From Methylophaga frappieri (GTDB lineage Bacteria > Pseudomonadota > Gammaproteobacteria > Nitrosococcales > Methylophagaceae), in the NCBI RefSeq assembly GCF_000260965.1, contig NC_017856.1, forward strand, positions 1,050,001-1,082,000: a stretch of DNA of 32,000 bases, written 5' to 3'. Of this stretch, positions 2,581-5,412 are shown piece after piece. Positions within the stretch are counted from its first letter, which is position 1, and the number at the start of each line of letters is the position of its first letter. A program made the position numbers and the translations under genes. The notes under the pieces are model-generated. The model worked only from the letters and a program-made list of their open reading frames with translations. It was not told the origin of the DNA and searched no databases.

Positions 2581-3822
2581 CTAATCCTGATCGTCCCATT
2601 TTTTACGGGATTCTCTAGCCAACGACATATTTTGTTCAAACCATTTACGTTTCATATTTTGCTGACGAGCAAAATTGATATTGGCTTCATACCATTTCTG
2701 CTTAAGATCCGCATGCGGATCAGGATGTAAATTGGCTTCGTACCATTTTTTATGGCTAACTCGAGCCTGCTCCAGATTGGCTTCATACCATTTTCGCTCT
2801 GGCGCCATCTGTTCATCACTGAATTCATACCAGTGTTTTTCAGAAGGTACTTGCTCCAGATTGGCTTCATACCACTTACGGGTAGTTGCCCGCACTTTTT
2901 CAATGTTGTGCGCCTGAAACCGTTTCTTCCAGTCGGTATCACCCGCTTCTTTGAATTCATACCAGTGCGTCGTGGTTGGCGTTTGATCCAAATTAGCTTG
3001 ATACCAACGATGTCGTGAAGCACGAACTGTATCCAAAGCCGACTTCAGATTGGCTTCATACCACTTTTGTTTGGCTTGCAGGTGTTGAACCAAATTGGCT
3101 TCATACCATGGCACATCCGACTTTTTGGCCGGACGTTGATTGGCTTCGTACCACTTGCCCTTTTCACGTGCAATTCGCGTGTTAAATTCAAACCAGTTTT
3201 GCTCGGCCTTGCGTGCGCGAGACAAACTTAAATTCGCTTCGTACCATTTCAACTTAATCTCTGAATGCGGATGCGATTGTTGGTTAGCCTCATACCATTT
3301 TTGCCGATTTTCACGGGTTTTTTCGAGATTGGCTTCATACCATTTTCGCTCTGGCGCCATTTGTTCATCACTGAACTCGTACCAGTGTTTGTCAGTGACG
3401 GTACTCTCCAAGTTGGCTTCGTACCATTTTTGCCGATTTTCACGCGCCTGACGCAAGCTCTCAATTTGCCACAGTCGTTTTGCCTCGGTATGCCCTTTCT
3501 CACGATAATCAAACCAGTGCGTTTGAGTCATCGTTTTTTCGAGATTGGCTTCATACCATTTTCGGGTTGTTCGAACCGAAGCAACAGCACTACGAAGATT
3601 GGCTTCATACCATTTCTTTTTGGTATCAAGATGCCGAACCAGATTAGCCTGATACCATGGCTTACCAGTGTGGCGCGTAACTTGAGAATTCGCTTTGTAC
3701 CAAGGAATTTTTTTCATGTTTTTTCGCACTGCATTCGCCTTTTGCCATTTGTCACGGATGCTGCTGCTTGCTGAATGATGATTAGCTTGCCACTTAGTTT
3801 TAATATCTATTGTGCTGCTCAT
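2581..3822 (-). CDS. Hypothetical highly repetitive protein (13 exact WYEAN motifs, about 27 W-[YF]-x-x-N-like units); family not recognised
   Basis: A 413-codon ORF stays open through a DNA-repeat-rich segment. The ATG at 3822 is preceded by GAGAGG 8 nt upstream. No signal peptide is apparent, and the protein is strongly charged (K/R/E/Q). Confidence 0.6.
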   Translation of the reverse strand: MSSTIDIKTKWQANHHSASSSIRDKWQKANAVRKNMKKIPWYKANSQVTRHTGKPWYQANLVRHLDTKKKWYEANLRSAVASVRTTRKWYEANLEKTMTQTHWFDYREKGHTEAKRLWQIESLRQARENRQKWYEANLESTVTDKHWYEFSDEQMAPERKWYEANLEKTRENRQKWYEANQQSHPHSEIKLKWYEANLSLSRARKAEQNWFEFNTRIAREKGKWYEANQRPAKKSDVPWYEANLVQHLQAKQKWYEANLKSALDTVRASRHRWYQANLDQTPTTTHWYEFKEAGDTDWKKRFQAHNIEKVRATTRKWYEANLEQVPSEKHWYEFSDEQMAPERKWYEANLEQARVSHKKWYEANLHPDPHADLKQKWYEANINFARQQNMKRKWFEQNMSLARESRKKWDDQD

Positions 3823-3920
3823 AGCCGATACCTCTCTCAGGCCTATCTTGCGCTTCGATAGTACCCCAGTTTTCTGTCAGACCACAAGCATCAGAATCTC
3901 TGTTTTAACCAATCTGTTTT

Positions 3921-4325
3921 TTATTGAAAACACCGCTTTTCTGCTTTTAAACGTTGCAGCATGGCTATTTGCTGACGCACATTTTCCATTCGCCTGACCT
4001 CATTTTCCGTCACCAAAGAGGAATAACCAAGGTAGCCTAATCCCAACCACGCTTTGAAAATAGGAATATTGTCAAAAATGATTAATCCCGTTGCGACCTT
4101 ATTACTGCTATCACTGTAAAAATCGGGTTTATAAGAGTATTGGAACGGATGCAGCGCGTTGATGGCTGCGTCTAGTTCATAACAATCAAATTGTTGATGC
4201 GCCGGTTTCGCTTTCACAATGGGCGGTTCGGCATAAATCGGTTCGGTTGGTACCGGCAGCATGGTCATTGCCTGTACCGAGGGGAGTCCCCAAAAAAGCA
4301 TAATCACGCCAGACCAAAGTCGCAT
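3921..4325 (-). CDS. Hypothetical secreted protein (134 aa)
   Basis: AAGGAGA lies 6 nt before the ATG. The N-terminal signal peptide is MRLWSGVIMLFWGLPSVQA. I recognise no family. Confidence 0.55.
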   Translation of the reverse strand: MRLWSGVIMLFWGLPSVQAMTMLPVPTEPIYAEPPIVKAKPAHQQFDCYELDAAINALHPFQYSYKPDFYSDSSNKVATGLIIFDNIPIFKAWLGLGYLGYSSLVTENEVRRMENVRQQIAMLQRLKAEKRCFQ

Positions 4326-4770: not shown

Positions 4771-5412
4771 TTAAACCCAGTAGCTGCTTCGCGTCATGAT
4801 TTTTGAGGTTAGGCGCATCAACTGCCGCACGGGCGCTGGTAAGACACTGCCACCGGCCGCCATCGCCTGTTCACCGTGTTCAATCTCATCGATTTTCATC
4901 TGTTCTAAAACGGCACGTGTCGCATTATCTGGACCGGCAAGAGTATTCAGATGCTGATCCAGATGGCGGGTAACTTGTCTTTCCGTTTCACCCACAAACC
5001 CAAGACTCCAGTTATCTCCAGCCTTACCGGCAATGGCACCAATTGTGAAAGAACCGATATACCAAAGTGGATTTAGAATGCTGCGATGTGAATGCAGAGA
5101 TTGCAAACGCTGGTCGCACCAAATTAAATGATCATTTTCTTCCAACGCAGCATGCTCCATTGCAGCACGCACTTCAGGCAGGCGGGCAGTTAATGCTTGT
5201 CCTTGGTATAAAGCCTGTGCCGCTACTTCTCCAGCATGGTTAACCCGCATCAACCCTGCGTTGTGTTTTTGCTCCGCTTTCGAGAGCGGTTCGCTATTTA
5301 CTGAATCTGCCGGATTAGCTCGGCCTGTGCCAGCAGGTTGCCCCCAAAGCGTCGTGACAGCCCTATCCAGGTTCAATATCAGATGATCGACAAATGAAAA
5401 TGGTTGTTGCAT
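4771..5412 (-). CDS. coq7: Demethoxyubiquinone hydroxylase Coq7 (di-iron carboxylate)
   Basis: MRVNHAGEVAAQALYQGQ... and the repeated E..H motifs (EENDHL, DEIEHG) are diagnostic of Coq7. The length of 213 aa fits the family. Confidence 0.88.
   Translation of the reverse strand: MQQPFSFVDHLILNLDRAVTTLWGQPAGTGRANPADSVNSEPLSKAEQKHNAGLMRVNHAGEVAAQALYQGQALTARLPEVRAAMEHAALEENDHLIWCDQRLQSLHSHRSILNPLWYIGSFTIGAIAGKAGDNWSLGFVGETERQVTRHLDQHLNTLAGPDNATRAVLEQMKIDEIEHGEQAMAAGGSVLPAPVRQLMRLTSKIMTRSSYWV

Follow-up and report, generated by a model that had tools for sequence, protein, structure and literature searches.

The reading frame under study lies in the window (the whole 32,000-nucleotide stretch of the Methylophaga frappieri genome that was analyzed), and it is best explained as a core gene of the Methylophagaceae whose product is cytoplasmic, very basic, and all-helical. 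The 15-residue unit from which this product is built is, we argue, homologous to the module that forms arrays in phage and bacterial HNH and endonuclease VII proteins, where the arrays lie between an N-terminal zinc ribbon and a C-terminal His-Me nuclease, and the best explanation of the Methylophagaceae protein is that the array alone was kept and expanded to 27 repeats. We tentatively propose (probability about 0.4) that it is a non-catalytic nucleic-acid-binding repeat protein, most likely acting on DNA.

The original prediction of a 413-residue open reading frame with WYEAN repeats was borne out. The translation contains 13 exact WYEAN motifs, 16 motifs of the form WY[EQK]AN, 18 of the form W[YF]x[AFQ]N, and 27 Trp residues, with Trp-to-Trp spacings of 11 to 19 residues (most commonly 14, 15, and 17), and HWYEFSDEQMAPERKWYEANLE occurs twice, as had been claimed. 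The protein has 46 Lys, 32 Arg, 4 Gly (~1%), and no Cys, and Trp makes up 6.5% of its residues; its pI is 9.66 and its net charge +23, and the pI ranges from 8.8 to 9.9 across the family. It is very hydrophilic (GRAVY, –1.43) and rich in K, E, A, R, and Q, and about 47 of its aromatic residues were counted as exposed. The N terminus is likewise hydrophilic, and neither a signal peptide nor a hydrophobic stretch was found in the 413 residues, in agreement with the earlier statement that a signal peptide is lacking. Open reading frames of 80 to 169 residues on both strands of positions 2652 to 3774, recognizable by their repeating “GMKPI,” “ASYH,” and “GFIPF,” are shadows of the repeat and not genes; they could mislead gene callers. 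One database homologue (P0001) is truncated, and its end is the +1-frame shadow of the repeat (“GMKPI”).

The 27 repeats are arranged as an N-terminal block of 3 repeats followed by a 12-repeat, 184-residue unit that occurs twice (3 + 12 + 12) (Table 1). The two super-repeats had been put at about 170 residues; the super-repeat exists, but its length is 184 residues, and at the DNA level the repeat search recovered a 178-nt pair, 77% identical, at an offset of 552 nt. The 3 repeats of the N-terminal block resemble the C/D part of the unit (positions 101 to 144 of the unit HMM match in many orthologues), and every triplet of a unit closes with a Pro/Thr/His-rich linker, for instance, LDxTPTxKH-WYEF, HPDPHAD, or RPAKxxxxP. 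In the Methylophagaceae logo, the consensus of the 15-residue unit is W-Y-E-A-N-L-E-x-A-R-E-T-K-K-K. The linker positions show 56% identity among orthologues of 8 clades versus 13% among nonequivalent repeats of one protein; the repeats within the protein are not interchangeable, each being individually constrained. A role of the conserved His/Asp linkers (HPDPHAD), encoded beside Zn-enzyme genes, in binding metal was also considered, and no evidence in its favor was found.

Table 1. Features of the repeat gene and its upstream region (positions in the window)
Feature	Position	Strand	Description or basis
CDS of the Trp/Tyr repeat protein	2581..3822, stop codon included	(-)	413 aa, 27 Trp-led repeats
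N-terminal block, residues 1-55	3658..3822	(-)	Invariant start M-x-x-T-x-x-I-K-x-K-W plus 3 repeats
Unit 1, residues 56-238	3109..3657	(-)	12 repeats forming four triplets, A, B, C, and D
Unit 2, residues 239-413	2584..3108	(-)	Duplicate of unit 1 at 552 nt offset, without the last repeat of triplet D
Recently homogenized tract, unit 2	2774..2843	(-)	Encodes ...HWYEFSDEQMAPERKWYEANLE; 35-nt exact run from 2774
Partner of the homogenized tract, unit 1	3326..3395	(-)	Repeat search (family D2) and identity at 552 nt offset
Promoter-like block, TTGTGG, 18 nt, TACTAT	3858..3887	(-)	Genus-wide conservation, 22 upstream regions aligned
Shine-Dalgarno sequence, AGAGGTA	3829..3835	(-)	Invariant in 22/22 genus orthologues; 6-8 nt before ATG

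Among the genomes searched, the repeat gene is restricted to the Methylophagaceae, marine bacteria that use methanol. In a first draw, an intact orthologue of 410 to 415 residues (53 to 78% identity) was present in 23 of 24 genomes of the genus and in none of 16 genomes from outside the family. A search with the family profile matched 78 of 83 Methylophagaceae genomes (51 of the 53 high-quality ones), with a single locus in each, and a pattern scan of 185,579 species, each represented by one genome, gave only entries labeled Methylophaga, Methylophagaceae, or “Piscirickettsiaceae,” together with some metagenome-assembled genomes labeled merely as a Gammaproteobacteria or Pseudomonadota bacterium. 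Within the genus, 22 orthologues form a near-gapless alignment with 127 invariant columns, and each has 410 to 415 residues and 23 to 29 Trp. Relatives outside the genus are more varied: many have 202 to 267 residues (3 repeats plus one unit), and others have 350 to 427 residues with different partial-unit duplications. The repeat copy number has thus changed repeatedly between genera while being frozen within Methylophaga, so that the copy-number variation suggested for strains was not seen in this genus; differences were found only between genera.

The gene is genuine, protein-coding, and under strong constraint. The dN/dS values are 0.016 to 0.044 (Nei-Gojobori; pairs in which dS is not saturated), and between species the protein stays conserved although synonymous sites have reached saturation. 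Disruption of the frame in orthologous regions, which would undermine the coding call if it were frequent, is rare: of 36 genomes of the genus, 34 have an intact frame and 2 a split one. The split orthologue examined, in Methylophaga muralis Bur 1 (locus L049, about 4890 to 4900), carries a single additional A in an A6/A7 homopolymer (…GATCTGAAAAAAACGC…); its downstream frame is otherwise intact, and the split could be a recent frameshift or a sequencing error.

Several collections were also consulted for traces of the gene. For five orthologue sequences, including those of M. frappieri and three named species, no exact entry was found in a 15-billion-protein collection, and a near-length search of the same collection gave one truncated homologue and fragments, compared with 53 clusters for the neighboring 134-residue protein; repeat-rich proteins may be underrepresented there or not called as genes. 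No entry for the repeat gene was found in the proteome and transcriptome supplements for Methylophaga thiooxydans (PMC6548844). A 1227-nt hypothetical gene next to a carbonic anhydrase gene in the JAM1/GP59 transcriptome table (PMC5918138) was considered and set aside, as it lies in the nar/pqq region, another locus.

The repetition is visible in the DNA itself. The 15-mer ATTGGCTTCATACCA occurs 8 times exactly and 13 times in the gene at ≤2 mismatches, against a chance expectation of 0.13 for the whole window; the figure of about 16 recurrences given earlier was an overcount. The repeat search described a 26-nt core in 14 copies with 65 to 85% identity and an irregular spacing of 45 to 132 nt. 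A low third-position drift had been noted as well, and this held in part: the motif Ala is encoded by GCC in 11 of the 16 copies, compared with 3 of the 24 Ala codons in the remainder of the gene (Fisher p = 5e-4), and GAA and AAT are used in 12 of 13 and 14 of 16 copies, respectively, but Tyr codons stay at background, without excess. Codon uniformity within the motif is therefore real, yet modest. The preferred Ala codon varies by lineage (GCC in M. frappieri; GCT in L038, L050, and L066), which fits homogenization within the gene, and lineage codon bias may contribute.

Could the repeats act as a DNA element, CRISPR-like or other, with the reading frame incidental? The presence of 13 near-copies of one 15-mer within 1.2 kb and the shadow reading frames on the opposite strand are what such an element might leave, but its irregular spacing, the empty Rfam search of the repeat region, the saturation of synonymous sites under a conserved protein, and a frame that is broken in just 2 of 36 genomes all point the other way; the idea is contradicted by the dN/dS values, and we give it practically no weight. 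A CRISPR array proper, which consists of near-identical 23- to 47-nt repeats at regular spacing with unique spacers in noncoding DNA, was rejected: the 26-nt copies are too dissimilar and too unevenly placed, and the region is a coding sequence under purifying selection.

The two units also exchange sequence. A block of about 50 bp near 2790 to 2840 had been reported to recur near 3340 to 3390, and indeed 47 of 51 bases are identical between 2790 to 2840 and 3342 to 3392, the longest exact run at that offset being 35 nt. Over segment C, the two units are 81% identical within one genome and 70% across clades, whereas orthologous segments are 70 to 74% identical. In the clade of L009, L010, and L022, the two units are 82 to 100% identical over segments A to C, and in the clade of L017 to L020, lineage-specific residues (WW, ISDEVAT) are common to both units. 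Homogenization in M. frappieri is confined to part of segment C, about 50 to 70 nt, and in the close relative L002 the units differ from each other at the residues homogenized in M. frappieri. These comparisons argue that gene conversion between the two units is real, strong in one clade, and local in M. frappieri. Of the ongoing conversion or expansion originally proposed, conversion is thus supported, but expansion is not: since length and repeat number are fixed within the genus (410 to 415 residues), no expansion is under way in Methylophaga.

The gene lies in a neighborhood whose order is conserved family-wide: fur, bamE, a beta-carbonic anhydrase gene, an MBL-fold hydrolase gene, the repeat gene, a gene for a 134-residue signal-peptide protein, PilZ, coq7, GGDEF, and cheV, with the MBL and PilZ genes variably present. 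In the window, the MBL-fold hydrolase (gloB-like, under the equivalog cutoff) and the beta-carbonic anhydrase are encoded at 1242 to 2521 on the minus strand with a 4-nt overlap (1886 to 1889) and look cotranslated; in many family members, the MBL gene is missing here and the carbonic anhydrase gene remains. Upstream of the repeat gene, the conserved TTGTGG-N18-TACTAT block was not listed by a consensus promoter scan, and we infer from its alignment that it is a putative promoter. In some Methylophaga clades (L009, L010, L022, and L017 to L020), the gene is followed by a clear terminator made up of a GC-rich hairpin and a T-run; the M. frappieri clade has no such terminator, and the repeat gene is separated from the MBL gene by 59 nt. 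Transcription units therefore differ between clades. In almost every locus of the family, the position immediately upstream of the repeat gene is taken by the 134-residue reading frame with a signal peptide (…PSVQA), which lies at 3921 to 4325 (minus strand) in the window; Pfam and NCBIfam assign this neighbor to no family, and all sources list it as a hypothetical protein. A distant homologue in another gammaproteobacterium (L100, 4994 to 5518) is flanked by htpG and an hslR-like gene, and no repeat gene lies close to it. A functional link between the repeat gene and this neighbor was rejected because the whole neighborhood is syntenic, the repeat gene has its own promoter-like block, and the homologue occurs elsewhere without a repeat gene.

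Searches of curated libraries assigned the repeat protein to no known family. Pfam gave nothing above threshold (the best entry was DUF7268, with an E value of 0.2 and 12 bits against a cutoff of 27), and NCBIfam and PADLOC gave no match. PHROGs gave none at E values up to 1e-3. Curated repeat families in Pfam and NCBIfam (TPR, Sel1, HEAT, pentapeptide, MORN, choline-binding, and others) stayed below their gathering thresholds; no recognized DNA-binding domain was found, nor was a Pfam HNH match even at E values up to 10. In the PDB, the sole match of the family profile was a designed pentapeptide-like protein (E = 1.1). A tblastn search of the protein against 50,697 phage records gave no match, and no longer fused relatives were found. 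Full-text literature searches for the motif or for a description of such arrays returned none, and a systematic survey of His-Me finger proteins is silent on them. The repeat family had been called unrecognized; this holds insofar as no curated profile library matches it, but phage proteins annotated as HNH endonucleases contain the same 15-residue unit, which has no name there either. The protein family is uncharacterized, and its module is already contained in known phage enzymes.

This kinship emerged from searches of 5.8 billion and 1.8 billion proteins, in which the sole matches outside the family were Zn-ribbon/HNH or endonuclease VII proteins of 183 to 524 residues. In most of those examined, three parts occur together: a Cys4 ribbon at the N terminus, an array of KW[YR]EANPE+ 15-mers, and, at the C terminus, an HNH or endonuclease VII domain. 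In PHROGs, the array-bearing proteins fall into phrog_1035 and related families (“endonuclease VII/HNH endonuclease”), and a PDB search with two HNH-array proteins recovered only an HNH core (E = 0.02). The consensus of the HNH-type array, W Y/R E A N P E K V K E T N R K, is in near-full agreement with the Methylophagaceae logo: both share the 15-residue period, an aromatic residue at position 1, Y/R at 2, E at 3, A at 4, N at 5, E at 7, an aliphatic residue at 9, a basic one at 10, E at 11, and basic residues at 14 and 15, and both are basic and predicted to be helical. In hhalign, the unit profile aligned with the array part only of the HNH-array profile (99.6% probability, E = 6e-25), and the HNH-array profile found the repeat gene as its only match in the M. 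frappieri genome (E = 3e-17), figures to be read with the reservation that hhalign and HMMER scores are inflated on repeats of biased composition. Despite this inflation, homology of the module is favored because the matches are specific and the registers agree.

The two protein types nevertheless differ in several respects. The four invariant Cys of the zinc ribbon (CxxC...CxxC) in the HNH proteins have no counterpart in the Cys-free Methylophaga protein, which also lacks their C-terminal His-Me finger nuclease (PF01844, PF14279, or PF02945) and does not reach phrog_1035. Position 6 is Leu in the Methylophaga repeat and Pro in the HNH arrays, and the repeat number is 27, organized in 12-repeat super-units, compared with about 4 to 12. 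Unlike the phrog_1035 type, the Methylophaga gene is chromosomal, single copy, and vertically inherited in one bacterial family. A nuclease-free array of phage origin might be a domesticated decoy that competes with phage HNH endonucleases for DNA sites (for example, in packaging) and thereby serves in phage defense. The repeat type is otherwise found in annotated phage HNH and endonuclease VII proteins (for instance, QIA28523.1 of Phage f2b1), some of them encoded beside portal genes, as a decoy would have it; however, the lack of a PADLOC match, the stable housekeeping neighborhood (fur, bamE, carbonic anhydrase, and coq7) in place of a defense island, and slow purifying evolution, unlike that of arms-race genes, make this reading very improbable.

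Structure prediction supports helices more than a fold. With 22 orthologues, the full-length AlphaFold model reached a pLDDT of 52 and a pTM of 0.16, and a single unit modeled with 91 unit sequences reached 70.9 and 0.25, respectively. The unit model consists of helices of 24 to 42 residues that span 2 to 3 repeats and are split by Pro-rich linkers; the pLDDT is above 90 at unit residues 140 to 170, and there is no confident tertiary packing. Foldseek found no match in the PDB for this unit model, the tertiary arrangement of which is unreliable. ESM Atlas likewise gave a poor model, with subthreshold leads to small phage proteins (score, 0.80 to 0.82) and structure matches below a TM score of 0.5. 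The helical solenoid anticipated in the original prediction is therefore upheld as regards helicity, but a compact solenoid was not obtained. In the HNH arrays, Asn5 is invariant and is most commonly followed by Pro6 and Glu7; this Asn5-Pro6-Glu7 stretch looks like a helix N-cap, and the structure may be kinked at every repeat.

Locally confident helices without intramolecular packing are also what an oligomeric coiled coil looks like when it is modeled as a monomer, and a structural or scaffolding protein, whose 15-residue (pentadecad-like) helices form coiled-coil fibers or bundles or bind a protein partner without involvement of nucleic acid, has to be weighed. Fifteen residues per four turns would give a near-straight hydrophobic stripe (W1, A4/N5, A9, and T12 in the logo). 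The YadA-type adhesin stalk, a pentadecad right-handed coiled coil, has the same 15-residue periodicity and long helices of the kind predicted here; however, YadA-type pentadecad stalks belong to secreted trimeric adhesins with different motifs, whereas the strongly basic Methylophaga protein lacks a signal peptide and, in sequence, shows no relation to them. In addition, the charge of +23 is unfavorable for homo-oligomers without a polyanion, and the conserved Asn5, with Pro-Glu next in the HNH arrays as in an N-cap box, speaks for a helix break in every repeat and against continuous coiled coils. We regard a scaffolding role as rather unlikely.

The low AlphaFold and ESM Atlas confidence, together with the hydrophilic, repetitive, K/E/A/R/Q-rich composition, would also suit a stress protectant of the hydrophilin/LEA type, that is, hydrated, loosely structured helices shielding macromolecules or membranes in salt-adapted bacteria. 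LEA proteins and hydrophilins combine high hydrophilicity with a high Gly content, and group 3 has 11-residue repeats. The present protein has a period of 15, not 11, only 4 Gly in 413 residues, an atypical Trp content, and no LEA match in Pfam, and its position-specific residues in each repeat and dN/dS of about 0.03 indicate a constraint far beyond what bulk physical chemistry would require. Such a role is improbable.

We therefore return to the nucleic-acid-binding reading. A polyanion binder is favored because of the combination of charge, exposed aromatic residues, helical repeats, repeat-specific conservation, and kinship with the arrays of DNA endonucleases, and the target is probably defined, not generic, because each repeat keeps its own conserved linker residues. 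In the mechanism that we envisage, long helices joined by Pro/His-rich hinges would lie along the polyanion, Lys and Arg at repeat positions 10 and 13 to 15 would contact phosphates, and the Trp-Tyr pair at positions 1 and 2 would serve either in packing of the array or in stacking on bases. The two units, between which gene conversion takes place, would probably have equivalent targets. Against this reading stand the absence of a recognized DNA-binding domain and of a PHROG or PDB match, and AlphaFold models without a tertiary fold (pTM 0.16 and 0.25) for which Foldseek came back empty. The arrays in HNH endonucleases could, moreover, serve as spacers while the zinc ribbon binds, and RNA, polyphosphate, membranes, or a protein partner would be equally plausible ligands for basic, aromatic-rich amphipathic helices.

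Modular helical nucleic acid binders such as TAL effectors, PUF, PPR, and mTERF proteins, and AlkD have repeats of 33 to 42 residues. Like the Methylophaga protein, these proteins (in AlkD, ALK/HEAT-like repeats) are tandem and helical, with a conserved scaffold, variable repeat-specific residues, and a basic surface; however, the Methylophaga repeat has 15 residues, and there is no sequence or fold match to any of them. A bolder version, for which we see little likelihood, is that the KWYEAN 15-mer is a new modular recognition repeat in which W-Y-E-A-N serves as a scaffold and positions 6 to 13 read defined DNA or RNA; the phage HNH endonucleases would then rely on the arrays for targeting, and the nuclease-free, 27-repeat Methylophagaceae protein would read a specific, 2-fold repeated cellular target. 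If it is true that the arrays bind nucleic acid repeat by repeat, they would constitute a small helical recognition repeat of a new type, of possible interest for engineering.

For the organisms themselves, the repeat gene is a near-universal, tightly constrained core gene of ecologically important marine methylotrophs that has carried no name, domain, or structure. It also illustrates neatly how a unit within a coding sequence can be duplicated and then undergo gene conversion that differs from lineage to lineage. A repeat module that had been seen only within phage HNH endonucleases, where it is unannotated, can evidently stand alone, expanded and domesticated, and the nuclease-free Methylophaga protein provides a clean system for finding the role of this module.
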